Source: a virus. From it: a stretch of 64,000 nucleotides of DNA. Where the stretch lies: the IMG/VR virus record IMGVR_UViG_3300030099_006944, positions 1 through 64,000 of that record; one strand, written 5' to 3'. Made by a program: the position numbers and the translations under genes. Below are positions 1 through 22,047 of this stretch, piece after piece (the stretch's first letter is position 1; each line of letters begins with the position of its first letter). Under the pieces are notes generated by a model. The model saw only the letters and a list, made by a program, of their open reading frames with translations, had not been told where the DNA came from and searched no databases.

Positions 1-1
1 T

Positions 2-760
2 CGCCAAGGTATCTTCGAGTTGTGCGACAGCCGCAAGATCGCAGGGTATACCCTACACCCTGACACCCTTATCTTTGCTTGTGTAAACGGCGGAGAGCAC
101 GGTGCTCAGTATCAAGTCGGGGAGTTTGACCCTGCGGAACTTGACCGTTACACCTGCTTCGATGTTCAGCCTACTGTCGAAGACTGGCTCGAATGGGCAG
201 ATGGTAACGTAGTTGAGCAAGTCTGGGACTTCATCAACCAGAACCACCAACATCTTGAACACAAAGACGACTTCGAGCCTAACAAGGTTTATCCTTCTCG
301 TCGCTCTTGGGTTCGCCTTTCCGATGCTCTGCTTTCAATGGGTGGTGAAATCAAGTCAACTCCTGTGCTTTATCACCTTGCCTCTTCTTTCATTGGCTTC
401 GAAGGTGCGGTTGCTTTCAATGACTTTGTTGCAAACTACAAGAAGATTGTGACTGTCGAGAACATCTTGGATGAAGGTAAGTTGGAACTTACCAAAGAGT
501 TCAAGATCAACGACCACAACGCTCTCATCGAGAAGTTCAAGCAGTCTAAGTGCTTCGATGATAAGTTGTCTGCCAAGCAGCTAAAGAATGTAGCCGAATA
601 TATGGTCACTCTTCCTTCGGAAATCGGCATGTCCTTCTGGACTGTGATTGCCTCTGGTTCGGAAGCGAAGCATAACGCCGCTGGTGTTCATGGTATCAAT
701 CTGTCTAACGGAACTTCCGTTAAAGACTATATGATTGAAATCCTTGGTGCTAAAAAGTAG
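2..760 (+). CDS. MoxR-like AAA+ ATPase, 5'-truncated by window edge
   Basis: Frame open from base 2 (RQGIFELCDSRKIAGYTLHPDTLIFACVNGG). Motifs DPAELDRY and YPSRRSW are typical of phage MoxR-type AAA proteins; a VWA partner follows. Confidence 0.8.
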   Translation, partial: RQGIFELCDSRKIAGYTLHPDTLIFACVNGGEHGAQYQVGEFDPAELDRYTCFDVQPTVEDWLEWADGNVVEQVWDFINQNHQHLEHKDDFEPNKVYPSRRSWVRLSDALLSMGGEIKSTPVLYHLASSFIGFEGAVAFNDFVANYKKIVTVENILDEGKLELTKEFKINDHNALIEKFKQSKCFDDKLSAKQLKNVAEYMVTLPSEIGMSFWTVIASGSEAKHNAAGVHGINLSNGTSVKDYMIEILGAKK

Positions 761-785
761 TCGAGGTGCTCGAAGGGATAGGGTT

Positions 786-830
786 GAGGACAGTTTTTGT
801 CCTCGACAAATCCCCAAATCATGATACATT
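786..830 (+). promoter_or_regulatory. Early-type promoter with operator-like palindrome
   Basis: GAGGACA-gtttt-TGTCCTC (786-804) overlaps TCGACA; 16 nt spacer; tgaTACATT; then TATAACCC and GGAGG. Confidence 0.65.
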
Positions 831-862
831 TATAGTATAACCCAAAACAATGGAGGTCGTCA

Positions 863-2101
863 ATGACTACCGATGACAAAACAAAACCAAAGTTTGACTT
901 GAACAAACACACTTTCAAGTTGTTACAATCTGAACCCTTCTTCGCTGGACTATCTCGACGTATCCACAAAGTGGAAAGTTATGCCATTCCTACGGCTGGT
1001 GTGATGATTGACAAGGAAACTGCACAGTTCGTTATGATGTACAACCCTGACTTCTTTGCTGACCTTCCAGAAGAACAGCGTCTTGGTGTTCTTATGCACG
1101 AGTTCTATCATCTTATCTTTGAACATGTTACTGGTCGCCTACCCCCCGAGGGTATGAGCAAGATGTGGAATGTAGCCACAGACCTTGCGATTAACTCCTT
1201 CTTGGTTGGTAAACTTCCCGAAGGTGGCTGTATCCCGACACAAGAGCCGTTTCAAGACTATCCTCTTGAAAAGTCTGCTGAGTGGTACTTCTCGAAGTTG
1301 CAGAATGATGAGCAGTTCAAACCCAAAGATGGCGATGGTGAAGGGCAGGGCGAAGGTGGCGAAGGTCAAGGCGACCCCTCCGAAGGCAACGGCAGTGGTT
1401 CTGGTCTGCCTGACAGCCTCGACGACCACAGCGGCTGGGGTGAAGTTGACCAAGAGACTAAAGCTATGGCTGAAGAGCGTTTGAAAGACGCTATCCGCAA
1501 GGCTACCGATGAAGTCAACTCTGGCGGTCGTGGCTGGGGTTCGGTATCTCAGGGTATGAGAAAGAAGATCCAAGACATGGTTACACCGAAGGTGAACTGG
1601 CGGTCTGTGCTTCGCTACTTCGTGAAGACTTCTCAAAGAGCCAACAAACGCTCCACAGTTCGGAGGATAAACAAACGTTTTCCATATATCCACGCTGGGA
1701 AGAAGGTCAATCGAACAGCCAAGATTGCTATCTCTATCGACCAGTCGGGTTCAGTCTCTGATGAAATGCTCTCCATCTTCTTTGCTGAACTCAATGGGCT
1801 TGCAAAGTATGCAGAGTTCACCGTTGTTCCCTTCGATACTGTTGTTGCAGAAGATGAAGTCTATGTTTGGAAGAAAGGGAAACGTCGAGTATTCGAGCGT
1901 GTCTCTTGCGGTGGTACTTGCTTCAATGCTCCGACCCGCTGGGTCAATGAGCGTGGCTTCGATGGTCATATCGTCTTGACCGATATGGAAGCCCCAAAGC
2001 CGATACCCTCGAAGTGTCAGAGAATGTGGATGACTACTCCTGAGTGTGCTTCTCGTCCATACTTCACTACAAATGAGCGTGTTATAGCAGTGGATAAATA
2101 A
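863..2101 (+). CDS. HEXXH metallopeptidase-like plus C-terminal VWA domain protein (DUF2201-like)
   Basis: VLMHEFYH; WNVATDLAIN; Gly/Glu linker; MIDAS ISIDQSGSVS; GGTCF. Confidence 0.85.
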   Translation: MTTDDKTKPKFDLNKHTFKLLQSEPFFAGLSRRIHKVESYAIPTAGVMIDKETAQFVMMYNPDFFADLPEEQRLGVLMHEFYHLIFEHVTGRLPPEGMSKMWNVATDLAINSFLVGKLPEGGCIPTQEPFQDYPLEKSAEWYFSKLQNDEQFKPKDGDGEGQGEGGEGQGDPSEGNGSGSGLPDSLDDHSGWGEVDQETKAMAEERLKDAIRKATDEVNSGGRGWGSVSQGMRKKIQDMVTPKVNWRSVLRYFVKTSQRANKRSTVRRINKRFPYIHAGKKVNRTAKIAISIDQSGSVSDEMLSIFFAELNGLAKYAEFTVVPFDTVVAEDEVYVWKKGKRRVFERVSCGGTCFNAPTRWVNERGFDGHIVLTDMEAPKPIPSKCQRMWMTTPECASRPYFTTNERVIAVDK

Positions 2102-2120
2102 GCCCGTAAGGGCTTCTCTT
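2101..2120 (+). terminator. Probable intrinsic terminator
   Basis: AGCCC-GTAA-GGGCT hairpin plus TCTCTT directly after the stop codon. Confidence 0.5.
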
Positions 2121-2175
2121 CTCCTACCCTACCTACACCCCTATGAACCTTCACAAATGCCTTATAGGAGCGTTT

Positions 2176-2535
2176 ATGAGCCTTAAAATACAAACAATCT
2201 TGCTTGCTACTGGTGAGAACAGCAAACAACTGTTTACAACCCCATGTGAGTTCCTCTATCCTCTTGCTGTACATCGTACCATTGACGAGACAAGGGAAAA
2301 GGAAAGAGGTGAGCGGTTGCGGTTCTCTAAGAGAGTTGCGGTATCTCACTTGCTCACTGGTGGTCAACTTGCTTTGTGTCACAACTACGAAGATGCTTTT
2401 GCTTTTGCAAAGGCTCTACATGAAGAAGAAATCTTCCTCATGCCTACCATTGACCTACTCACCACCCACCCAGACTGGGCAAGGGTAGCCGAAAAGGTTC
2501 GAGATCTCAAACATTCCTTGTGTGCGATAACATAG
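2176..2535 (+). CDS. Hypothetical protein
   Basis: GGAG precedes ATG 2176, which is in frame with the track ORF at 2143. Confidence 0.55.
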   Translation: MSLKIQTILLATGENSKQLFTTPCEFLYPLAVHRTIDETREKERGERLRFSKRVAVSHLLTGGQLALCHNYEDAFAFAKALHEEEIFLMPTIDLLTTHPDWARVAEKVRDLKHSLCAIT

Positions 2536-2554
2536 AACTTTTTTAACTTTTTTC

Positions 2555-2583
2555 TTGACAAACTGCTCTCAATCAGATAGTAG
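2555..2583 (+). promoter_or_regulatory. Sigma70-like promoter
   Basis: TTGACA-17nt-TAGTAG, then TATAACCC and GGAGG before 2614. Confidence 0.55.
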
Positions 2584-2613
2584 TATATATAACCCAAAGC
2601 CACGGAGGAAATC

Positions 2614-2913
2614 ATGGCATACTTTACAACTAACGATGGAGTAATCGACTACTTCTTAAATCAAAAGCCTGCAAACGCTGGACGCTTAAAGACAGATGGG
2701 CAATCACTCTTCTCTTATGACTTGCGGATTGCTGAACACGTCCCACAAGATGATGGTTCTGCTATCACGATAGTCTATGACTATACAAGAGGCGGCAACG
2801 CTTATAAGTCACAGACCACTTCAAGCCACGTTGGCTTGATCAAGCGGCGAGTTCCTAGGAGAAACGTTATGTTAGTCGAGGCGGCTAAAGCTGCTGGTCT
2901 TATTGGCGGCTGA
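2614..2913 (+). CDS. Hypothetical protein
   Basis: GGAGG RBS and promoter upstream; 99 aa. Confidence 0.7.
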   Translation: MAYFTTNDGVIDYFLNQKPANAGRLKTDGQSLFSYDLRIAEHVPQDDGSAITIVYDYTRGGNAYKSQTTSSHVGLIKRRVPRRNVMLVEAAKAAGLIGG

Positions 2914-2914
2914 T

Positions 2915-3085
2915 ATGTTTCTCGTTAAACATTTTGAAAGAGGATATGGACATGCGACAAAGGATACTTCATATAACGGTGGGATTGGTTATTTTGTGCG
3001 GTTTTTCGACCGTTATGATCATCCAGTCTATTTCACGGAAACGTCCTTCACCTACAAGGTGTTAGAGTTTGTCGAGGAAGAATAA
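2915..3085 (+). CDS. Small hypothetical protein
   Basis: ATG directly after the previous stop; fills the gap to the next promoter. Confidence 0.55.
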   Translation: MFLVKHFERGYGHATKDTSYNGGIGYFVRFFDRYDHPVYFTETSFTYKVLEFVEEE

Positions 3086-3086
3086 A

Positions 3087-3143
3087 AACGGACAGTTTTT
3101 GTCCGTTCCTTCTCTTGACAAATACTTACTATCAGGATACATT
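3087..3143 (+). promoter_or_regulatory. Early-type promoter with operator-like palindrome
   Basis: AACGGACA-gtttt-TGTCCGTT (3087-3107); TTGACA (3115)-17nt-TACATT (3138). Confidence 0.75.
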
Positions 3144-3175
3144 ACTAATATAACCCGAAAAGACTAGGAGGTCTT

Positions 3176-3454
3176 ATGGAAAAATACTTCACTGTTGAGC
3201 ATTACAAATATGGTATCGGAACTGCTATTTTAATCAAGCACCGAAGGAAGAGACAAGACGACTTGTTCATGTGTTCTTTCAAAGACTTGAAGGGTCAGCG
3301 GTCATTCTACTGTCGTAAGCACTTTGATGAAGGTGATGAAGTATGGTGGAGCGATGGAACTCCTAGGAAGCGTCGCAAGACAAAATCCAGACAAGAAGAG
3401 TTGGAAGATGCAATCAGAGGCTTCTTTGTCGGCGGTCAGCCGATTAACTCTTAG
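3176..3454 (+). CDS. Hypothetical protein
   Basis: GGAGG RBS and promoter upstream. Confidence 0.65.
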   Translation: MEKYFTVEHYKYGIGTAILIKHRRKRQDDLFMCSFKDLKGQRSFYCRKHFDEGDEVWWSDGTPRKRRKTKSRQEELEDAIRGFFVGGQPINS

Positions 3455-3459
3455 GCTTA

Positions 3460-3696
3460 ATGTTTGAGGTTGGAGATCTTGTAACAGTGGACAGCGAAGC
3501 CCTTCGCCTCCATGTTCACTTAAACGTCTACAACCAGTGGAAAACTTGTGAACTCGGCATCGTCGTTGGTGTCGAGGGATACAAGAACCAAGCAACGCTT
3601 CTGGTCAAGGTCTACTTTACCAGCTTAAGCAATGCTTATTGGCTTCATGCTCATGAAGTTATTCCCGTTGTCTCCCAGATAGCGGAGGACAAATAA
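3460..3696 (+). CDS. Small SH3/KOW-like VGDLV family protein
   Basis: MFEVGDLVTV...LGIVVGV. Confidence 0.65.
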   Translation: MFEVGDLVTVDSEALRLHVHLNVYNQWKTCELGIVVGVEGYKNQATLLVKVYFTSLSNAYWLHAHEVIPVVSQIAEDK

Positions 3697-3700
3697 AAAC

Positions 3701-3743
3701 GGACACATTCTGTCCTTGACTTTTTCCCTCATCGTGATACATT
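3701..3743 (+). promoter_or_regulatory. Early-type promoter with operator-like palindrome
   Basis: GGACA-cattc-TGTCC abuts TTGACT-16nt-TACATT. Confidence 0.7.
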
Positions 3744-3774
3744 ATATATGTAACCCAAACAAATGGAGTTCACT

Positions 3775-3990
3775 ATGAACATTACAGAAGTTAAAATAGG
3801 AGACATTCTCCTCAACGAATGCAACGTAGGCAACGAAGTTCTAATTGTCACCGAAGTATCGTACAATTGCTCTCGTTATGGTGCGCCTTACATAGCAACC
3901 AAAGTAATCAAGTCTCCTGTCTATGGCAAGGACAAAGAGAAAGTGTTTACAGGGATCTCTCTACTTCAAGGCATATCAAAAATCGCATAA
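3775..3990 (+). CDS. Small VGDLV-like protein
   Basis: GGAG before ATG 3775; EVKIGDILL. Confidence 0.6.
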   Translation: MNITEVKIGDILLNECNVGNEVLIVTEVSYNCSRYGAPYIATKVIKSPVYGKDKEKVFTGISLLQGISKIA

Positions 3991-3992
3991 AC

Positions 3993-4035
3993 GGACATTT
4001 TATGTCCTTGACTTTTCCCCGAAACGTGATACATT
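3993..4035 (+). promoter_or_regulatory. Early-type promoter with operator-like palindrome
   Basis: GGACA-tttta-TGTCC abuts TTGACT-16nt-TACATT. Confidence 0.7.
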
Positions 4036-4065
4036 ACTTATATAACCCCAACAAAAGGAACTAAG

Positions 4066-4248
4066 ATGATTGACAAGATTTGGCAATACCTTAACAACAC
4101 TCCTGAACCAGACTATGACAGACTGGTTCAGATCCAGCAATGGATAGTTCACAGAACATCAACAACAACCGATCAAGACGAGGTGCATGACCTTCTCGAA
4201 CTTGATGAAGCAATCGACGAAATCATCTACGCTTTGGAGGCAAAATGA
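4066..4248 (+). CDS. Small helical hypothetical protein
   Basis: Promoter and AAGGA RBS upstream; ATGA overlap with the next gene. Confidence 0.6.
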   Translation: MIDKIWQYLNNTPEPDYDRLVQIQQWIVHRTSTTTDQDEVHDLLELDEAIDEIIYALEAK

Positions 4249-4469
4249 GATTACGACTTAAATCAGGCGATTTGGTTCGCAACCAATGGACAGGGGAACT
4301 CTTCATAGTTATATCACAAGGATACAGTTATGTCGATGCTACCGACACCAGAGGCAAAGAAGTCAAGTTGAGAACTTGGGATCTCGAACTGTTCGATGGT
4401 ATCGACAGATGGATTACTCACAAAGACCTGACCTTCTGCACTGAAACTCTTCAGCCTACTTGGGATTGA
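4245..4469 (+). CDS. VGDLV family protein
   Basis: LKSGDLVRNQWTGELFIV. Confidence 0.6.
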   Translation: MRLRLKSGDLVRNQWTGELFIVISQGYSYVDATDTRGKEVKLRTWDLELFDGIDRWITHKDLTFCTETLQPTWD

Positions 4470-4471
4470 TG

Positions 4472-4633
4472 ATGTTGCAGGTAGGTGATTTAGTCTTAGA
4501 CAAAGAACTCGGTGAACTGGCGGTAGTTATCGAGATTAGAAACGCGCTCTATGTTGTGCGCTCATTGGAAACTGGCTGTGCATATCCTGTACCGTGCGGA
4601 TTAGCAGATGAAGAATTGGAGAAGATAGCATGA
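4472..4633 (+). CDS. VGDLV family protein, 53 aa (not in ORF track)
   Basis: Hand translation: MLQVGDLVLDKELGELAVVIEI...EELEKIA. Confidence 0.6.
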   Translation: MLQVGDLVLDKELGELAVVIEIRNALYVVRSLETGCAYPVPCGLADEELEKIA

Positions 4634-4803
4634 ATATAGGTGATTTAGTAAAATGTTTAATACTCGGTGAGTTGGGAATACTCATTGATTTTCACTGGGA
4701 GGACACAGAAGATGAAGTCTACGCTGTTGTCCAACTAGCCGACAACTCAACGGTTCTATGCTCTTATGAGGATATGGAACTGATAGCATGCTCAAACCCG
4801 TGA
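4630..4803 (+). CDS. VGDLV family protein, 57 aa (not in ORF track)
   Basis: Hand translation: MNIGDLVKCLILGELGILIDF...EDMELIACSNP; ATGA overlap. Confidence 0.6.
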   Translation: MNIGDLVKCLILGELGILIDFHWEDTEDEVYAVVQLADNSTVLCSYEDMELIACSNP

Positions 4804-4810
4804 GGACAAT

Positions 4811-5101
4811 ATGACACCAACAAATAAAACTCAATACTTAGCAGTCCTTCTCGGACTAGTCGGAAAACACTTCGAGGATCTAACCAAAAACCAAGAGGTA
4901 GCAATGGTGAAGGCTTGGAACTGTCTAGCTGATAGCGGCGACCTTCCAGCATTGCAACATGCGCATGCTCTTGCTGGACATCGGATCGTCGAGATAGTTA
5001 AAAACGAAAACGATAATGATCCAGACAGTCAAATCGCTGCATCGAAGGGTCATATCGATGATATAATAAATGAACTTCATACCATCTTGGAGGCAGAATG
5101 A
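4811..5101 (+). CDS. Hypothetical protein
   Basis: GAGGA RBS; tightly packed operon. Confidence 0.6.
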   Translation: MTPTNKTQYLAVLLGLVGKHFEDLTKNQEVAMVKAWNCLADSGDLPALQHAHALAGHRIVEIVKNENDNDPDSQIAASKGHIDDIINELHTILEAE

Positions 5102-5286
5102 AGAAAAAAATACAAGTAGGCGATTTAGTAAAACACCTGAGAAGCCGAGGACAACTGACGCTTGGAGTAGTAACAGCAATAAGAGGAAACATTGTAGAAG
5201 AAGTTTATTCTTGCGATGTTCTTTGGAGTTGCGGGAGACACAGCGCACACCCAAGTCAATGGCTGTGGCTATTGGAGGCAGAATGA
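5098..5286 (+). CDS. VGDLV family protein
   Basis: IQVGDLVKHL...LGVVTAI...DVLW. Confidence 0.65.
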   Translation: MKKKIQVGDLVKHLRSRGQLTLGVVTAIRGNIVEEVYSCDVLWSCGRHSAHPSQWLWLLEAE

Positions 5287-5465
5287 AAGTAGGAGATATG
5301 GTTGTTGAAAGGAGATTAAGAGCACAGCCATTCCATCGACAACTCTCGATAGTGGTTGGCTTATCGGAATCTCCATACGCGGCGACGACAAGGAAGGTGA
5401 AAGTGCAAAACATTCGCACGGGTGGCATCTACTGGCTTAGATGGTGTGACGTGGAGAGACTATGA
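5283..5465 (+). CDS. VGDLV family protein
   Basis: GGAGG then MKVGDMVVER; true start lies inside the track ORF at 5070. Confidence 0.6.
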   Translation: MKVGDMVVERRLRAQPFHRQLSIVVGLSESPYAATTRKVKVQNIRTGGIYWLRWCDVERL

Positions 5466-5644
5466 AATCAGGAGATCTAGTGAAAAGAGCCAACTGGAAG
5501 GTCGGTGGAACTAAGGAAACAATAGGAGTGATTATCCAAGAAGGGATAGGGAATGACTGTGTTCAGGTTGTCTGGGCGCACGGAGAAATCGTCTGCATGT
5601 CAGTGCAGGACTTAATACTGATCGAAGCATCGGAGGACAAATGA
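5462..5644 (+). CDS. VGDLV family protein
   Basis: MKSGDLVKRA...IGVII...VQVVW. Confidence 0.65.
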   Translation: MKSGDLVKRANWKVGGTKETIGVIIQEGIGNDCVQVVWAHGEIVCMSVQDLILIEASEDK

Positions 5645-5835
5645 AAAATAAAATAATCTTTATACGTGATATACATAACGGTGAATATGGACATGCTTGG
5701 CTAAGAGAAGCCACAGCAAGAAAACCAGAACATTATGAAGTAAGACTACTGAATGACTACGACAATAGTTCTATCCATTCAGTACCTACGTTTTTTATAT
5801 ATTATGAGGTGTTAGAGAATGAAGAAAGAGATTAA
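5641..5835 (+). CDS. Small hypothetical protein
   Basis: GGAGG RBS; ATGA overlap. Confidence 0.55.
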   Translation: MKNKIIFIRDIHNGEYGHAWLREATARKPEHYEVRLLNDYDNSSIHSVPTFFIYYEVLENEERD

Positions 5836-5983
5836 AGCAGGAATGCTTGTTAGCCGTGGTTCACTTCTTTTGTTAGTGATAGAGATAGGGAAGAACTATT
5901 ACAACGGCTTCGCGTTATGCTGTACAGTTGATAGCGATCCCAGTGAGTTCTGGATTGATAAATGCTTGTTGCATCCCGTGTGA
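5819..5983 (+). CDS. VGDLV-like protein, 54 aa (not in ORF track)
   Basis: Hand translation: MKKEIKAGMLVSRGSLLLLVIEIG. Confidence 0.45.
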   Translation: MKKEIKAGMLVSRGSLLLLVIEIGKNYYNGFALCCTVDSDPSEFWIDKCLLHPV

Positions 5984-6041
5984 ACCGATCTTCTACCCTA
6001 GTACCCCCCTACCCGATGCCCACTCTTTTAACATTTTATAT

Positions 6042-6059
6042 TTCCTATAGCTATAGGAA
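6042..6059. repeat. Perfect 18-bp palindrome
   Basis: TTCCTATAGCTATAGGAA is its own reverse complement. Confidence 0.9.
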
Positions 6060-6297
6060 CACCCGACAGAGCGCAGGAAAGAGCAAGTGTCAGATGCGCA
6101 TTCAAGCGCGTTAAACGTGTATGTGCGCATTTAGTGTGCTGTGTGAGTGTGTTGACCTGTCCAAGTCAATAGAAGGGCTTGTAGGCGTGTTGTGCGTCTG
6201 TGTAAGCGGTGTGTGTATGTGCTAGGTATGGTGGGAACAAGAGCATTCACGTCGTGTTCACGGGGCTTATAGGCGAAACTCCCATATGTATATAGCG

Positions 6298-6313
6298 TGT
6301 TACGAGCGTAACA
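6298..6313. repeat. Inverted repeat TGTTACG-ag-CGTAACA
   Basis: Read directly; the half-site recurs at 6426, 6494, 8173 and 8263. Confidence 0.8.
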
Positions 6314-6539
6314 GCCGAAACTCCGAGGGAAATAAAGTGGAACTCTTAGGGAGACTATTGACTAACCCCCCGATTTTATTGAGGTTTTTCATTTCAACAT
6401 TTTTGCGCTGTGTATACATGAGGCGCGTAACAATGAAACAAGTTTCATTCAATGCAAGCGACGTGAATGTGAGAGTAACGAAACACCTCCCGATGTTACG
6501 GAAATCCGAGGATCTCTTGACAAGTTCTTGACAAAATAC

Positions 6540-6617
6540 TTTACATAACTATAAGGAAGGGAGTTGTCAAGCAAATGTAAAAATTTTACATAACTATACG
6601 AAATACTTTACATAACT
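6540..6617. repeat. Three direct repeats of TTTACATAACT
   Basis: Copies at 6540-6550, 6585-6595 and 6607-6617. Confidence 0.85.
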
Positions 6618-6658
6618 CATTTAAATGTCAAGAAGTTGTTAAAAGAACCCCATAAAGT

Positions 6659-6686
6659 TTGACAAACGCTTTCAACGTGATACATT
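6659..6686 (+). promoter_or_regulatory. Early-type promoter without palindrome
   Basis: TTGACA-16nt-(tga)TACATT; GGAGG before 6727. Confidence 0.7.
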
Positions 6687-6726
6687 ATATATATGAAACG
6701 CTGTTGTTTCACTTCTCGGAGGTCTT

Positions 6727-7026
6727 ATGACTACTATTCAACCTAACTTTGTTGCTCTCACTCCTTGCCGCTCTCAACTTGTCGGCTGTCATAACCACTC
6801 TTCTGCTGTCGCCTATGCTACGGGGCGTTTACCAGAGAAGGATAACACCCGTCAGCCGGTCACTGTCGAGGTCACAGCTTTTGTCTCTCCCCGTGGTCAA
6901 TACTACGTTATGCACGGTAACCAACGGATGGACGTTGCAAACGCTTCGACGGCTCGATACTACGTTAAAAATGGTGTACCTGTTTCCGTTATGCTTGATG
7001 CTTCTCTTTCAACTCTCAACCAATAA
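6727..7026 (+). CDS. Hypothetical protein (weak ParB/Srx-like YYVMHGNQR motif)
   Basis: Strong promoter and RBS; the domain guess is weak. Confidence 0.6.
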   Translation: MTTIQPNFVALTPCRSQLVGCHNHSSAVAYATGRLPEKDNTRQPVTVEVTAFVSPRGQYYVMHGNQRMDVANASTARYYVKNGVPVSVMLDASLSTLNQ

Positions 7027-7039
7027 CCCGAGGTCATAC

Positions 7040-7141
7040 ATGGATTATATTATCGTTGCTTTCCTTGCCTATCTAGCAGGTTCTTTATCTATCATCTTTT
7101 ACTTTGAGTATTTACAACTCTTAGAGGATAGACATGACTAG
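7040..7141 (+). CDS. 33-aa single-TM peptide
   Basis: GAGG RBS; MDYIIVAFLAYLAGSLSIIFYFEYLQLLEDRHD. Confidence 0.5.
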   Translation: MDYIIVAFLAYLAGSLSIIFYFEYLQLLEDRHD

Positions 7142-7251
7142 CCTGTATCTCTTCCTTCTCTTTCCTCTCTTCTATTTCATTCTGTGCCCTTATCTTATTT
7201 CCTTGGAGGCTTCATGCGACTAAGACCATATAAATAATATTTTTTTGTTCT

Positions 7252-7305
7252 CGGACATATTCTGTCCGCTCTTTGTTTGACAACCCTGTATCACCATGAT
7301 ACATT
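7252..7305 (+). promoter_or_regulatory. Early-type promoter with operator-like palindrome
   Basis: CGGACA-tattc-TGTCCG; TTGACA (7277)-17nt-TACATT (7300). Confidence 0.75.
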
Positions 7306-7356
7306 ATATATAGAGGTTGGGAATGGTTCTCTTCTCTCTTTCGCCTTGGAGGCATT

Positions 7357-8022
7357 TTGACTACTACTACTGAAAATACTAACTCTCCCGCTTTTGTTAC
7401 AACCCCGCGTGGCTCGCGCATTCCGAAGACTGGTACTCTCGCGTACCATTCATCCATCGGCTTCTGCGATGTTATCGGGCGTGTAGGTGAGCGCGTTCGT
7501 ATCCGTGTGACAGATTTCTCTGAAGCTACTGATGTTGTTCTCGCCGCTGGTACTAAGCAAGAGCGTACAATCTCGCGCTCAGACTGGTTGCTACGTGTTG
7601 CCGAGGCTTCCGATGCTGCCGCTCTTGCAGAGTGTGCTCACTACGATGCCCGTGGTCAGGACGATACCGATGCACTCTACGGTGCTTCTCCTATGATACG
7701 TCAGTTGCAAGAGAGCGTAATGTCTCGATGCCGCGCGGCTACTGAGATGCTCGTTGCTATCGATGGTGCGGAGGCTATCGGCTGGGAGTTTGACGAGTAC
7801 CTCACAGAGCGTCCAGCGTCCGAGCGTAAGCGTGGTAAAGCCCCAGCACCTCGACCGTATAAGAAGCCTGCTTCTCGTGTCGGTACTCTCGAAGATCCCA
7901 CTAAGCCTGATTGGCTCGTGGCTGAAATGAATGAATGCTTCGGTGATATGTGGACGCCTGCTAATCCCGAGCGTGACGAGGCTTTCAATGCTTATGTTAA
8001 AGAGCACAACCCTCGCGCATAG
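7357..8022 (+). CDS. Hypothetical early-type protein
   Basis: GGAGG plus TTG start; 221 aa; promoter upstream and terminator downstream. Confidence 0.7.
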   Translation: MTTTTENTNSPAFVTTPRGSRIPKTGTLAYHSSIGFCDVIGRVGERVRIRVTDFSEATDVVLAAGTKQERTISRSDWLLRVAEASDAAALAECAHYDARGQDDTDALYGASPMIRQLQESVMSRCRAATEMLVAIDGAEAIGWEFDEYLTERPASERKRGKAPAPRPYKKPASRVGTLEDPTKPDWLVAEMNECFGDMWTPANPERDEAFNAYVKEHNPRA

Positions 8023-8072
8023 CCCATAGCTATAGCTGCCTAACTCTCTCGCCCTTACTACTTACCTACCGC

Positions 8073-8093
8073 CCCCCGTACCACGGGGGTTTT
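8073..8093 (+). terminator. Intrinsic terminator
   Basis: CCCCCGT-acc-ACGGGGG followed by T-run. Confidence 0.7.
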
Positions 8094-8107
8094 ACATTGG
8101 AGGTTTT

Positions 8108-8197
8108 ATGACCCATCGCTTTGAAATGTTACTTGGTGGTTTCCTTGTTGGCATGCAACTTGGTTTGTTTGTTGTTACGTTTATTGTTTCGCTTTGA
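8108..8197 (+). CDS. 29-aa hydrophobic peptide (not in ORF track)
   Basis: GGAGG at 8099; MTHRFEMLLGGFLVGMQLGLFVVTFIVSL. Confidence 0.45.
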   Translation: MTHRFEMLLGGFLVGMQLGLFVVTFIVSL

Positions 8198-8358
8198 GCG
8201 CGTGAACCCCCTCCCCCCCGGGTGGTGGAGGTCTTGGAGATCTCTTCGAAATAAGTTCTTCATGTTACGCTTTCGCGGACGAGCGAAGCGAGATACGCCA
8301 GACCGCTCTACAAAAATTCCCAGAATCGAAAATTTCCCCCAATTAGATCACCGAGGTA

Positions 8359-8365
8359 CTATTTA
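8359..8365 (+). promoter_or_regulatory. Candidate late promoter motif CTATTTA
   Basis: Upstream of the first gene of the AT-rich zone; recurs before other genes. Confidence 0.4.
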
Positions 8366-8406
8366 AGGTAGTAAAAATATTCTCAAAAAATTTTTGGAGA
8401 TTTTGA

Positions 8407-8868
8407 ATGTCAAAAGATATGAAGCTGATAATGGAAACGTTTCGAAAAAACGTCGTACAAGAAAAAGAAGAATTGCAGACGGTTGGTGCCGTTTTAAGCA
8501 TCATACAGAAATTCCGACAAGCGAAAGCAGGTGGTGAGGCAGGCAAAAAAGCACTCGAAATGACCATTGAGCAAATTCCGATCGTTAGTAATATATGGAG
8601 CATCGTGAAGGGCGCCAAAGAAGCCAAAGATATGATCTCTACTCTATATGGGATGGATGATAAATTCCAGAGCAATACCGGACTAGACAAGCTTAACATC
8701 GATGATAATATTTCAAAGATAGTCGACGACAAAGTGGAGGCAGCGTTTTTAAATTTTTTAATTGACAAATTAGGAAAAATGAATCCAGACGCACCAATGC
8801 CAGACGCGTCGATTGAAATTCAAGATTTTTTAGCTAGCAAATTTGATCAACATACGATAAAAAAATAA
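8407..8868 (+). CDS. Putative virion-internal protein, MSKDMK-tag family
   Basis: N-terminus MSKDMKLIMETFRKNVVQE nearly matches ORF 25464. Confidence 0.65.
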   Translation: MSKDMKLIMETFRKNVVQEKEELQTVGAVLSIIQKFRQAKAGGEAGKKALEMTIEQIPIVSNIWSIVKGAKEAKDMISTLYGMDDKFQSNTGLDKLNIDDNISKIVDDKVEAAFLNFLIDKLGKMNPDAPMPDASIEIQDFLASKFDQHTIKK

Positions 8869-8880
8869 GGACAATTCCCA

Positions 8881-9153
8881 ATGAAGATAACAAAAAAACA
8901 ATTAATGGAAATCATCGAAGAAGCAATGACAGTGATGGAAGACGATGAGGCTCCGGAGCCCGGTGGCGAGACGATGTCGGATGTTGGGAGGGTCCTAACT
9001 TATATCGACAAGATAGACAACTATAAAGAATACGGACAACTATTACAAAAAATATTAGAACACGAAGTTAGAGGAAAAGATGTCGTTATGAGGAAAGTTT
9101 TAGGCAACCAAATAGCCAACGCAATCCTTAAAAAATTGGGTGGATCAAAATGA
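8881..9153 (+). CDS. Putative virion-internal protein, MKITK-tag family
   Basis: MKITKKQLMEIIEE. Confidence 0.65.
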   Translation: MKITKKQLMEIIEEAMTVMEDDEAPEPGGETMSDVGRVLTYIDKIDNYKEYGQLLQKILEHEVRGKDVVMRKVLGNQIANAILKKLGGSK

Positions 9154-9323
9154 AGTTGGAGTTATCACACATCATAGCACTATTGACCATTGGAGCAACG
9201 CTAGTGGGCTTTTATTACACTACAAATCACCGCCTAGACCATCTAGAAGATATCGTTGTAGAATTGAAAGAAAGGGATATGTTGCTTGAACAAAAGATAA
9301 ACAAAAAAGGAAAAAAGAAATGA
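9150..9323 (+). CDS. 57-aa TM plus coiled-coil protein (not in ORF track)
   Basis: MKLELSHIIALLTIGATLVGFYY...KINKKGKKK; ATGA overlaps at both ends. Confidence 0.55.
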   Translation: MKLELSHIIALLTIGATLVGFYYTTNHRLDHLEDIVVELKERDMLLEQKINKKGKKK

Positions 9324-9856
9324 GCAAAAGAAAAAGTCAATGGCCGTCACAATTTTCGCCGGTAAAACCATGGGAGTCGTTTTTGGTATATTTCGACAAA
9401 GGAGCAAAGGCTCCGCCCATTCCACCTAGGATGGTTCGAATAAAAGGAAGCATTGACGTACGTCACACTCTTAACCTTAAAAAAAATTATCAACAAAACA
9501 ACGTAATCATTGATATTCAGGTCGATAACATCACCCCTGATGGTAGACACACTCCCGTTGATATGTGGCTTAACGTTAGTGGTTACAACATAGAACCCGA
9601 CCCCGATGGGAAGTATATCGATATCGATGCATGGGTTCTCAAAAACAAAGGGATTTCCGATGACTTTGGTAATATCCTTGACCGTCAAGGAAAACTTGTT
9701 GCAACAAAGAAACAACAAAACAAATGGTCGGGCGTTCCAACGCACACTCCTAAGCCTCCGCAAAAACAAACTGATTCTAGCGGTAATATCATGGAAGGAC
9801 TTACCAAAGAGAAGTTGCACAAACTAATTGAACAGGTAATGAGAGATTTGAAATGA
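9320..9856 (+). CDS. Hypothetical protein with C-terminal tag-like helix
   Basis: Ends EGLTKEKLHKLIEQVMRDLK. Confidence 0.6.
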   Translation: MSKRKSQWPSQFSPVKPWESFLVYFDKGAKAPPIPPRMVRIKGSIDVRHTLNLKKNYQQNNVIIDIQVDNITPDGRHTPVDMWLNVSGYNIEPDPDGKYIDIDAWVLKNKGISDDFGNILDRQGKLVATKKQQNKWSGVPTHTPKPPQKQTDSSGNIMEGLTKEKLHKLIEQVMRDLK

Positions 9857-12027
9857 AGCTTAACAAAAAATATTTGTTCGGGCTGATAATGGAAGCCTTG
9901 GAAGACGATGGTTTATCAAACGAAGAGCGTCAAGATTTTTTCGCGAAAGCAATGGATCTTGCCTCTGTTGATTGGCCAAGTGTACAACAAGCATTAGAAT
10001 TAATTCAATACGTTAATTTTGACGAAAAACAAATGCAAGCTCTTAAGAGCACCATGGAAGATACAATTTTAGGCGCGAATGGGCCCGACGAACCCGGACC
10101 GGCTTTAAAAGAATTAGGCTTTGATTTTCACCAAATTTTTCAAAACGAAATGGGGTTTCGTCCTCCGGAAGGAGAGTTCGAACTAAAAAACAAAATCTTT
10201 TCTCTTCGGGCTAACCCCGGCGGTAATCGAATGGAGTTTGAATTTTATTTTGATCAACAAGGGCCGCTAGCGATAGAGCCTTTCTTTCATTTCAAAAGCC
10301 CTCTTCAACCATATGATGGCTATGTCGGAATGGACATGGACAGAGAGATCACTTTTTCTGCTGGCTCTGCTCGAACCTTTGGTGCTGATGAGATTACAAT
10401 ATCCAAGAGAGAGTTGCCCGGAAGACTTAGAAAAGCTATGGGTTTTGGTCCGGATGAGGACATCCCGGGATGGCCCGGATTACCGAAGGGATCGGCGCCA
10501 ACCATAAACGAAAACCAAGGGAATCTAGGATTCTCTACTGCTGAGGAGTTCGAAGAGTGGTTGTACTCCGAGTATATGAAGGGTGCAAAATATTTTAAAC
10601 AAGGTGCTGGGAACTTTAATCATGGTGAGTTTAAAAAGGTCATCAAAACTTTTTTAAATATCGAATGGAGACCTGCTAACAAAAGACCTTGGAAGGAACA
10701 CTCTATTCATGAACCTTTTGCGGCATATAGATTTATTGAAGAGGCTGATCACATGTTTCCTTTTATATGGCGTCTTTTAGGTCATGATAGGAGCCACAAG
10801 AGACCCGACGGGAAATCGTACGGATGGCAAGGAAGTAACTGGGAGGATAGGTATTATAGATTAAGGCATTCTTCTGAGCATCCAATAATTAAACGATTAC
10901 AAGACCTTGCAAAAAAGATGATGAATGCTCTTTCTTTTTCTAGTAGACAATTACCTACATTTAAAAAAGCGCTTGGCTTGAAAGAGTCCGGTAAACAAAA
11001 ATTAAATAAAGATTATTTGTTTCATATGATCAACGAGGTTCTTCGCGAAGACGAAGAAGAGCAAGAACCGATCGATATCTTAAAAGATAAAATTGAAAAC
11101 GTCATCAAACTAAAAGATTGGAGCTACTATGTCCAATTTTTTGAATTGATCGATACTTTCGAAGATAGCGCTTTAATAGAAAAGGAAGAGGCTAACGCAC
11201 TTCGCGAAAGGTTGTGGGGAGCCGTCTGGTTTTTAAAAGTTTATGATCGCGATAACTTGGATGAAGTTGCTGAATTATTTTTAACTCACAAAAACCTTCC
11301 GGAAGACACCAAAGAAGATATTCACTCTTCCATTTATTATTATGGTGGATATTTTAGGGATACCGAATGGACTCTCAAGTATGTGGCTAAATCGCTTGGA
11401 TTAAATTTGAAGATTGAAGCCATTGATCCTGATAATTTGTATGAACTTAGTGGCGCTGATGGAGATGATTTAGATAAGCTTAAGGATCACTTGCTTGAAT
11501 TGGGTGAAGAAGAGAAATACTTTGAGGTGTATCCTGAGACCGGAGGTCTGTTGTTTGGTGTGTTAGCAAAACCTTATGTCAACTTTGAGAAGAAAATAGA
11601 GGAAATTTTTGGCGCAACGCCGAGCGGCGATCCTATGATGTCTGGTGGTTCTATGATGACCGTCTCGATAAGGAAATCGATCGATGAACCTTTTGAGGCT
11701 CCGATGGTGAAGGGCAGTAAAGTAACAGCAGATATAATGTTTGAGTGGAGTCCGGAGACCGAGTATGGAATGGAGATCACTCTTCTTCCTGCTAAATTGG
11801 GAACTACACCACAAACATTGCTTGATGAGTATTATGGAATCTGGGTGAGTGTTGCACAAGAGGGTCCTAATATCGGAAAACTTGAAATTGGAATTCAAAA
11901 TTATGAGGATGAATTTGCGGACCACAAACAGGTTCAGAACAAAAACGGAACTTACGGATTTACTGTTGAAGAAATGAAAGACAAAATCAAAGAAATAACT
12001 GGAATTGACTTAAATGAAATTAACTAA
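9853..12027 (+). CDS. Large tagged protein with two modules
   Basis: MKLNKKYLFGLIME at the N-terminus and KLNKDYLFHMINE internally. Confidence 0.7.
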   Translation: MKLNKKYLFGLIMEALEDDGLSNEERQDFFAKAMDLASVDWPSVQQALELIQYVNFDEKQMQALKSTMEDTILGANGPDEPGPALKELGFDFHQIFQNEMGFRPPEGEFELKNKIFSLRANPGGNRMEFEFYFDQQGPLAIEPFFHFKSPLQPYDGYVGMDMDREITFSAGSARTFGADEITISKRELPGRLRKAMGFGPDEDIPGWPGLPKGSAPTINENQGNLGFSTAEEFEEWLYSEYMKGAKYFKQGAGNFNHGEFKKVIKTFLNIEWRPANKRPWKEHSIHEPFAAYRFIEEADHMFPFIWRLLGHDRSHKRPDGKSYGWQGSNWEDRYYRLRHSSEHPIIKRLQDLAKKMMNALSFSSRQLPTFKKALGLKESGKQKLNKDYLFHMINEVLREDEEEQEPIDILKDKIENVIKLKDWSYYVQFFELIDTFEDSALIEKEEANALRERLWGAVWFLKVYDRDNLDEVAELFLTHKNLPEDTKEDIHSSIYYYGGYFRDTEWTLKYVAKSLGLNLKIEAIDPDNLYELSGADGDDLDKLKDHLLELGEEEKYFEVYPETGGLLFGVLAKPYVNFEKKIEEIFGATPSGDPMMSGGSMMTVSIRKSIDEPFEAPMVKGSKVTADIMFEWSPETEYGMEITLLPAKLGTTPQTLLDEYYGIWVSVAQEGPNIGKLEIGIQNYEDEFADHKQVQNKNGTYGFTVEEMKDKIKEITGIDLNEIN

Positions 12028-21444: not shown

Positions 21445-21640
21445 GGATGTAGGTGATCTTGTCAGAATCAAATATAGTCACTACTCTCCTTTTTACATCA
21501 GACCAGATGTAGGAGAAATAGGTATTATAGTAGAAGTCAGCAAGAGTTCTTCCCTAGGAGTCATATATTTTGTACAAACATCAGATGGAATTTGGAAATT
21601 CTCAGATTATGAAGTGGAGCCTTTTGATGGAGGTAGGTGA
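21443..21640 (+). CDS. VGDLV family protein
   Basis: MDVGDLVRI..IGIIVEV. Confidence 0.65.
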   Translation: MDVGDLVRIKYSHYSPFYIRPDVGEIGIIVEVSKSSSLGVIYFVQTSDGIWKFSDYEVEPFDGGR

Positions 21641-21824
21641 TCTGGTTAGAGTGACTTGTACCAACGAACCTTTTCGGTTCAGGCCGGACAAAGGTAGTGT
21701 TGGTATAATAGTAGAAATTAAATATTATAACTGGGCAGGGACTTGTTATTTCGTATTGATAGATGACATTGGTTGGAGATATTTAGAAACGGAATTGGAG
21801 TTAATTAGCAGTGGAAGTAGGTGA
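21627..21824 (+). CDS. VGDLV family protein
   Basis: MEVGDLVRV..VGIIVEI; paralog of 21443. Confidence 0.65.
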   Translation: MEVGDLVRVTCTNEPFRFRPDKGSVGIIVEIKYYNWAGTCYFVLIDDIGWRYLETELELISSGSR

Positions 21825-22047
21825 TTTAGTAAGACAAAGGTCGGTTGGAGTTGCGATCATATCAGAATATATAAGAAGCAGTTTGCATCTAGGTTTAATT
21901 GGTGTCATAAAAGAAGTGCACGATAAAACTAATTTTTCATATGATGGAAGGAACCGAGGAGATATTACAGTTGTGTGGTCCAATGGAAAAGAGGAAACAC
22001 TACCAGAGATTTATTTAGAAAAGGTGGAAGATGAGCAAAGAACTTGA
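21811..22047 (+). CDS. VGDLV family protein
   Basis: MEVGDLVRQ..IGVIKEV..ITVVW (GTG start). Confidence 0.65.
   Translation: MEVGDLVRQRSVGVAIISEYIRSSLHLGLIGVIKEVHDKTNFSYDGRNRGDITVVWSNGKEETLPEIYLEKVEDEQRT

Follow-up and report, generated by a model that had tools for sequence, protein, structure and literature searches.

The first 64,000 nucleotides of the IMG/VR virus record IMGVR_UViG_3300030099_006944, referred to here as the window, open with about 8 kb in which CCGG and GGCC are almost absent. The question that this locus raises is why a phage would rid one part of its genome of restriction-type palindromes and carry the same palindromes freely in the rest. Partial-genome restriction is established for T5-like (PMC10644984) and T7-like (PMC12455610) phages, which have fixed ends and staged DNA entry. 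A preliminary description of the window had proposed that its opening stretch likewise enters the cell first and evades host type II restriction. We find that the depletion covers a contiguous zone of early genes, ends at two sharp edges, follows position and recurs, with other words, in the syntenic block of related phages, and we suggest that this block is the part of the chromosome that is exposed to host restriction before phage protection is in place.

A site-poor zone with sharp edges

The window makes up the first 64 kb of a contig of 187,355 bp. An overlap of 42 bp between the contig ends allows the assembly to be closed as a circle of 187,313 bp. The restriction-site-poor zone is contiguous over the record junction, running for ~20.0 kb from genome position ~175,564 through 187,313 to window position ~8,235. 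Its left edge lies between 175,094 and 175,563 and its right edge between 8,218 and 8,315. In a whole-genome table, the bins from 176 kb to the record end are as empty as the beginning of the window, and AATT is nearly absent there too. CCGG, GGCC, GGNCC, AATT and GANTC together occur 17 times in the zone, against the ~357 sites predicted from their density outside it (one per 56 bp). The G+C content is 44.1% in the zone and 39.1% elsewhere in the genome. The portion that falls in the window is as follows.

1..8235, no strand: window part of the restriction-site-poor zone, delimited by site counts; its leftward continuation is genome 175,564-187,313

The counts made by eye for the preliminary description proved exact, both for 1-8400 (two CCGG, at 6856 and 8218, with zero GGCC and zero GGNCC) and for 8400-10500 (12 CCGG and 5 GGCC), and its remark that the early region is richer in G+C also holds (about 45% versus 39-40%). 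What it understated were the span, which is ~20 kb, and the word set, to which AATT, GANTC, GGNNCC and AGCT have to be added. The 42-bp overlap of the two ends (window 1-42 and genome 187,314-187,355) contains one mismatch, which gives CCGC at window position 31 and CCGG at genome position 187,344; one of the few CCGG of the zone is therefore either a strain variant or an assembly-end error.

Depletion under Markov and codon controls

Expected counts were derived in two ways: from a maximal-order Markov model built inside the whole 20-kb zone, and by exchanging synonymous codons among the zone's own genes in 300 replicates. The second control is conservative, because it keeps all proteins and the zone's own codon usage. 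The counts in the zone are listed below.

GGCC: 0 observed; Markov 36; codon-shuffle mean 24.4
CCGG: 3 observed; Markov 32; codon-shuffle mean 26.7
AATT: 12 observed; Markov 62; codon-shuffle mean 70.1
AGCT: 24 observed; Markov 91; codon-shuffle mean 70.4
GGNCC: 0 observed; codon-shuffle mean 19.8
GANTC: 2 observed; Markov about 60 (GAATC 1 versus 30, GACTC 1 versus 30); codon-shuffle mean 45.0
GGACC: 0 observed; Markov 23
CCAGG: 0 observed; Markov 21
GGNNCC: 0 observed; 44 expected (outside the zone, 297 versus 268)

None of the 300 shuffles was as low as the observed values. TCGA, CATG, GCGC, TGCA and GTAC occur at normal frequency in the zone. The depletion is far beyond chance and is limited to a subset of the restriction-type palindromes. 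It persists under both corrections, with its significance intact and with no sites missed by eye. The preliminary caveat that Ser/Thr/Pro-Gly codon pairs inflate CCGG later in the window is answered by the codon shuffle, which still predicts 20-70 sites per word.

Outside the zone the same words are not selected against. When the codon shuffle was applied to 8.3-28.3 kb, only CCWGG and AGCT were depleted, both of which are low genome-wide, and the test outside the block gave no depletion of CCGG (47 versus 32.7) or AATT (206 versus 198). Because depletion is zero there, sites outside the block are effectively neutral or harmless. Some 340 sites have been lost from 20 kb, and ~3,000 sites of the same words are retained elsewhere.

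A small set of words is avoided throughout the genome. CCWGG occurs 6 times against about 113 expected, AGCT is partly avoided, and all ten CTNNAG word classes are low (104 sites versus about 460 by the Markov model and 657 by composition). In a close relative whose DUF2201 protein is 93% identical (G001; the phage studied here is G000), CTNNAG occurs 626 times against 659 expected, and its avoidance in G000 looks like recent pressure by an enzyme that reads the interrupted palindrome.

A further regularity in the zone concerns the spacing between GG and CC. GGCC, GGNCC and GGNNCC are all at zero, and counts recover progressively at wider spacing, with GGNNNCC at 24 versus 44 and GGNNNNCC at 32 versus 44; the series implies either three separate enzymes or one factor that is sensitive to GG-CC spacing. 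CCNNGG lies outside the set of interrupted palindromes avoided in the zone (ratio > 0.78).

Position rather than gene class

Some 55 genes, most of them tiny, lie on the + strand of the zone. Many belong to a GDLV (SH3-like) mini-gene family, and about 91% of crude open reading frame calls are co-oriented with the zone direction. Site density follows location and not the kind of gene, as the preliminary description had held. Open reading frames of up to 100 amino acids carry 1.2 sites per kb inside the zone and 20.0 sites per kb outside it. The 17 GDLV mini-genes inside the zone contain 4 sites together, whereas the 6 outside contain 29. The paralogue block at 21.6 kb illustrates the difference.

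21570..22047, + strand: two GDLV-type mini-genes, paralogues of zone genes, lying outside the zone and carrying 12 avoided-word sites together

One of these genes holds GGCCGG at 21,682-21,687, which confirms the earlier report of both sites in this block. Transcription by the host does not delimit the zone either: among 31 sigma70-like promoter matches, 24 are found beyond the edges of the block, and the strong ACTTGACAAAC...TATATTATA class, with 8 members, occurs there exclusively. Because host-type promoters are also found outside the zone, reading by host polymerase alone is insufficient to explain the pattern.

Recurrence in relatives with changing words

Using the DUF2201 protein as an anchor, we found 173 relatives in IMG/VR, many of them in records of 185-195 kb. 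Eight genomes besides G000 (seven complete and one partial) were rotated to a common origin, and the nine genomes were subjected to a maximum-gap scan in which the longest site-free gap was tested for every 4-bp and 5-bp palindrome (p<1e-4). On the common map, all long gaps (6-28 kb) fall in the syntenic block, at 20.7-50.8 kb; outside it the scan found just two significant gaps, each of 2-3 kb, in words made up of A and T alone (ATNAT, TATA). Across the phage and its relatives, the site-poor block comprises 12-28 kb of early genes. The words that are missing from it differ from genome to genome.

G000: GGCC, CCGG, GGNCC, GANTC, AATT
G001: GANTC, AATT, GCWGC, GGNCC, AGCT; GGCC not avoided
G002: as G000, plus CCWGG
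G003: AATT only
G004 and G008: CTAG
G005: GGNCC, CTAG, GATC, CGSCG
G006: GATC, CTAG
G007: GATC

At 80 loci with 10-kb flanks, the avoided sets are very diverse, AATT being the commonest member, and 16 of the 80 show no avoidance. In a tree built from the DUF2201 proteins of 81 taxa, avoidance switches state 15 times for AATT, 11 times for CTAG, 11 times for GGCC and 14 times for CCWGG. The DUF2201 orthologue is itself clean in avoider lineages, with 0.06 AATT per gene in avoiders versus 3.3 in others, 0 versus 6.7 GATC and 0 versus 4.1 AGCT, which indicates that the purge took place in place, and repeatedly. Because the words differ between phages and switch often on the tree, the pattern points to ongoing, host-specific restriction-enzyme selection on the block alone.

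Comparable T4-type genomes of similar size do not yield such zones by the gap method. RB49, a true T4-type phage with small early-gene blocks, has ordinary, evenly spread palindromes and no regional gap for any 4-5-bp word, and the T4-type Microcystis phage Mel-JY01, a distant cultured relative, has no regional gap. In the T5 first-step-transfer repeat (NC_005859) the footprint is faint, with CCWGG at 2 versus 11, GGNCC at 1 versus 6.6 and almost nothing for 4-mers. Restriction of T5-like phages acts solely through sites in that repeat (PMC10644984). The signal reported here exceeds this textbook case, and T5 is a weak yardstick as a positive control. Mel-JY01 (PP395634.1; L161-L164) displays extreme classical avoidance: its 190 kb contain neither GATC nor CTAG, against an expectation of about 590 for each word, and AGCT, TCGA, GGCC, GCGC and CATG are strongly reduced genome-wide.

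Two other properties of the block were observed in the relatives. It is 4-9 GC points above the rest of the genome in all nine genomes, avoiding or not. The block of G004, whose sole footprint is one CTAG-free gap, is GC-richer as well, so GC content and avoidance are uncoupled; codon adaptation of early genes to a GC-richer host is one possibility for the composition. Contig ends are also concentrated in the zone: it contains the start of 4 of 8 complete records, and in half of the 80 loci the contig breaks off at most 8 kb upstream of DUF2201, in a sample that is biased by ascertainment because every locus was found via that gene. Repeats and strain diversity within the mini-gene arrays probably account for the clustering, and we rejected the contig ends as physical ends because their positions differ between records.

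Anatomy of the block and its boundaries

Seven features of the window describe the block and its right-hand boundary.

2..760, + strand: MoxR-like AAA ATPase, C-terminal two thirds (phrog_1297, E 9e-25); gene start at genome 187,012
863..2101, + strand: DUF2201 metallopeptidase-like plus VWA protein (PF13203 and PF09967)
786..7305, + strand: early promoters with a GGACA-N5-TGTCC operator, 10 of the 11 genome copies lying in the zone
6539..6620, + strand: three copies of the repeat A5-CTTTACATAAC-TAT, one of which is the spacer of a TTGACA-N17-TATAAG promoter
8073..8097, + strand: intrinsic-terminator-like hairpin, the strongest in 1-12,000 (7 pairs, 6 of them G-C, then a T-run; -16.7 kcal/mol)
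8180..8406, no strand: conserved non-coding junction, 225 bp, 78-81% identical in G001 and G002
8407..8868, + strand: first gene past the boundary, with normal site density (14 AATT in 460 bp)

The ATPase, which is cut by the record start and occurs in 8 of 8 relatives, and the DUF2201/VWA protein are core zone genes, and they are the only two proteins with matches in hidden Markov model (HMM) searches of 20 zone proteins. Each of the zone's GGACA-N5-TGTCC operators abuts a weak host-type promoter. At the left edge lies a non-coding stretch of 480 bp with TTGACA-N17-TATAC promoters, in which the 17-20-bp repeat A5-CTTTACATAAC-TAT forms the spacer. These direct repeats occur solely at the zone ends, in six copies at the left edge (genome 175,627-175,870) and three on the right, all on the + strand; the two-cluster layout is kept in G001, and the right-hand cluster in G002, a fragment without the left edge. 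Judging from this arrangement, the repeat is probably a binding site for a regulator that marks the first and last early units.

On the right, the hairpin at 8073-8097 closes the last zone gene (7357-8022). The junction is conserved in G001 and G002 although the gene that follows it differs. The avoided words return inside the junction, from 8,315. In G000 the gene at 8407-8868 opens a block of virion-type genes that includes, further on, a baseplate wedge gene and PhoH. The anatomy as a whole, with a promoter cluster on the left, operators confined to the block, and a terminator and conserved junction on the right, fits a discrete unit. We also examined the junction as a candidate injection-stop signal: its hairpins are no more stable than those of shuffled sequence, and its C-run/G-run was rejected as a stable hairpin on the same ground.

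Two conserved zone proteins deserve description. A basic protein of 310 amino acids (genome 182,161-183,093; L001:14162-15091), which 7 of 8 relatives also encode in their zone, contains two zinc knuckles of the invariant form CX2CX4HX4C and has no match in Pfam or PHROG; such knuckles are usually seen in retroviral nucleocapsid proteins. An acidic early protein of 123 amino acids (genome 178,167-178,538; L001:10168-10536) has 33 Asp/Glu residues and invariant MGYRS, KWY and RxGE motifs. Its structural model (predicted local distance difference test score, pLDDT, 84.6) has an alpha/beta fold without a PDB match at E<=0.001, and, considered as a candidate DNA mimic, its best PDB matches are weak and ferredoxin-like or PII-like (E about 0.01). 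Together with the ATPase/VWA pair and a core zone protein of 99 amino acids, both proteins are candidates for an anti-restriction or second-step role. Elsewhere in the genome, the possible late-promoter marker CTATTTA has a strand bias (26 versus 4), with copies too few to delimit the late region.

A block probably exposed before protection is in place

We consider it highly probable that restriction enzymes are the agent of the selection and that this selection is limited to one compartment of the genome. In the mechanism that we propose, host type II enzymes would have access to no part of the chromosome but the ~20-kb block until phage protection is in place, and selection would strip the block of the target palindromes of whichever enzymes the hosts of each lineage carry. 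The other ~167 kb must be fully shielded, because the same words stand there at or above expectation. The block would enter first, its cluster of host-type promoters leading; at the terminator and conserved junction (8.07-8.3 kb), entry or exposure would come to a halt, and the remainder would follow only after block-encoded products have neutralised restriction. The words avoided genome-wide (CCWGG, CTNNAG and partly AGCT) may belong to enzymes that escape this protection. Taken by itself, polar and staged entry as the physical basis falls slightly short of even odds in our judgement. For the combined statement, a restriction-exposed pre-early compartment with staged polar entry as its most economical basis, we put the probability at roughly 0.55.

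Several observations weigh against a block that enters first. The large terminase is gp17-like and of T4 type (48% identity to that of Flavobacterium phage immuto, 44% to Microcystis phage Mel-JY01 and 33% to cyanomyovirus gp17), and it is present together with T4-like virion genes; by the usual rule, a T4-type terminase predicts headful packaging and permuted ends. The NCBIfam model of the T7 terminase scored 26 bits against a cut-off of 150. In Murciaviruses, type I motifs restrict only in the first-injected region, and the authors of that work argue that an effect of this kind should not exist in headful phages (PMC12455610). Nor is the zone a T5-type long terminal repeat, because its depth is 1x and equal inside and outside: Logan contig k-mer depth, compared at contig level and not from raw reads between contigs wholly inside the zone and those outside, is 12.0 versus 12.2 in X3 and 5.1-6.9 versus 5.2-6.3 in X8. 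Contig depth is flat, with no visible start or end points of molecules, and says nothing on termini. The circular assemblies, with overlaps of 42 bp in G000 and 127 bp in G004, are compatible with permuted ends and with short terminal repeats alike. A tblastn search of the nine genomes with 15 T5 first-step-transfer proteins, including A1, A2 and dmp, gave nothing below E 0.3, HMM searches found no Ocr-like or ArdA-like protein, and the 17 sites that remain become neither rarer nor commoner from one end of the zone to the other.

The preliminary proposal thus fares differently in its two halves. Evasion of type II restriction gains from the positional depletion of palindromes and from its recurrence, with different words, in the syntenic block of relatives. 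First entry, which the equal depth, the T4-type terminase and the lack of T5 pre-early homologues count against, we keep solely as the most economical reading.

A bolder version of staged entry is possible, although we doubt it more than we favour it. A widespread marine T4-type clade may deliver a 12-28-kb pre-early segment first, although its terminase is of headful type and the segment is not duplicated at the ends, by a route that would have evolved independently of T5 and with unrelated genes. The 225-bp junction would then be the stop signal, and the second step would be licensed, and type II restriction disarmed, by proteins of the block, for which the universal pair of MoxR-ATPase and VWA proteins is a candidate, as is the protein with two zinc knuckles. 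If this two-step version were true, the footprint would serve as an in-silico reporter of the first-entering DNA and of the restriction repertoire of uncultured hosts.

Alternative explanations

The main rival to a block that is exposed by staged entry is a race for a critical target. The whole permuted genome would enter at once, cuts outside the block would be tolerated or re-ligated once restriction is off, and a cut in the block would stop the anti-restriction and takeover genes. The T4-type terminase and the circular assemblies fit the headful packaging that this scheme supposes, the block does carry the operator-controlled earliest promoters, and residual sites without a gradient are what it would lead one to expect. 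The purge, however, spans all ~55 genes, including dispensable, variable mini-genes and intergenic DNA, with edges that are sharp to 100-450 bp. The ~3,000 undepleted sites outside the block are hard to square with simultaneous exposure, and RB49, with true T4-type biology and small early-gene blocks, has no regional footprint. We regard such a race as unlikely.

Two other explanations are weaker still. In one, the bulk of the genome is protected by a base modification or methylation that is absent from the early block, for instance to keep it readable for host RNA polymerase, and the block relies on avoidance instead. The idea draws some appeal from immuto, the cultured relative with the closest terminase, in whose DNA a 7-deazaguanine derivative takes the place of every G (PMC10516641). 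A CcrM-like N6/N4 DNA methylase with a 130-residue N-terminal extension (genome 152,490-153,572; L120:1057-2139) also occurs in G000 and G001, alone among the nine genomes, and their subclade avoids GANTC in the block only. This enzyme cannot explain the avoidance of AATT, GGCC and CCGG or the sparing of the block. We found no C5 methylase, DpdA/TGT, QueC, Dam-type or ThyA-family genes in any genome tested, and the words avoided genome-wide contain all four bases; a blanket base modification of the genome is unlikely for these reasons. The bulk DNA is not generally refractory to restriction, because CCWGG, CTNNAG and AGCT are avoided throughout, AATT contains neither G nor C, and no non-palindromic candidate target word is missing from the block. 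We know of no mechanism that would spare a contiguous 20 kb from modification, and we judge exclusion of the block from modification to be improbable. Import of the block as a foreign, GC-richer module, with word usage set by its donor or by codon and amino-acid content, is largely refuted and can be given very little weight. The composition (44% versus 39% GC) and the shuffling, repeat-rich, hyperplastic nature of the block would suit it, but the block is GC-richer in all nine genomes, G004 included, so that GC and avoidance are uncoupled, and the codon-preserving shuffle still predicts the missing sites. The DUF2201 and ATPase genes, which are inherited vertically, lost their sites in place, and avoidance has switched many times on the tree. 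None of the nine genomes could be the donor, because none avoids AATT, GGCC or CCGG genome-wide.

Implications

Among the phages compared, the strongest footprint of partial-genome restriction belongs to this clade, whose members are abundant, uncultured and marine and have packaging and virion genes of T4 type; no fewer than seven word families are involved. If the genomes of these phages have defined ends and enter in stages, the picture of T4-type infection would change; if not, some mechanism must shield about 90% of the incoming genome from type II enzymes. The set of words missing from the block would read out the restriction enzymes that each uncultured phage meets, and so make host restriction repertoires and a fast phage-host arms race (15 AATT switches among 81 taxa) measurable from genome data.

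Comparison with known systems

A megablast search with the zone and a tblastn search with a 724-amino-acid late protein found nothing among cultured phages, and in the literature we found no description of regional restriction-site avoidance in T4-type or marine myoviruses. Elements of the arrangement have parallels in four better-known settings.

As in the first-step-transfer DNA of T5 and other Tequintavirus members (PMC10644984), restriction avoidance here is confined to one block of ~10-20 kb with small takeover genes, which has its own class of promoters and a non-coding junction at its distal edge, and the rest of the genome carries sites without selection. Unlike the T5 segment, the zone is not a duplicated terminal repeat, has no homologues of A1, A2 or dmp, and belongs to a phage with a T4-type terminase and myovirus-like virion genes. 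Its footprint is much stronger, and two-step entry is here a proposal.

The block also resembles the leading regions of T7-type phages (Autographiviridae) in its co-oriented genes, in the clustering of host-type promoters at one edge and in the terminator that closes the early genes. It shares with T7-type phages and Murciaviruses a hypervariable early region and restriction selection at a sub-genome scale. It differs from T7-like phages in belonging to a 187-kb myovirus-type genome and in avoiding many type II palindromes of 4-5 bp in place of one type I motif. A search of the phage genome with PF00940, the T7-type RNA polymerase family, gave no match, with control genomes that were uninformative. 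The many small, shuffling early genes behind repeated promoter/operator cassettes are reminiscent of the hyperplastic early regions of T4-type phages with promoter-early stem-loop (PeSL) cassettes. Because RB49 has no regional gap, the restriction footprint is not general to such regions.

Classical genome-wide avoidance of restriction sites (PMC6286503) involves similar words and the same presumed agent, and the phage shows it for CCWGG, CTNNAG and partly AGCT. In contrast to that classical pattern, avoidance of GGCC, CCGG, GGNCC, GGNNCC, AATT and GANTC stops at two sharp edges and leaves the other 89% of the genome unaffected.

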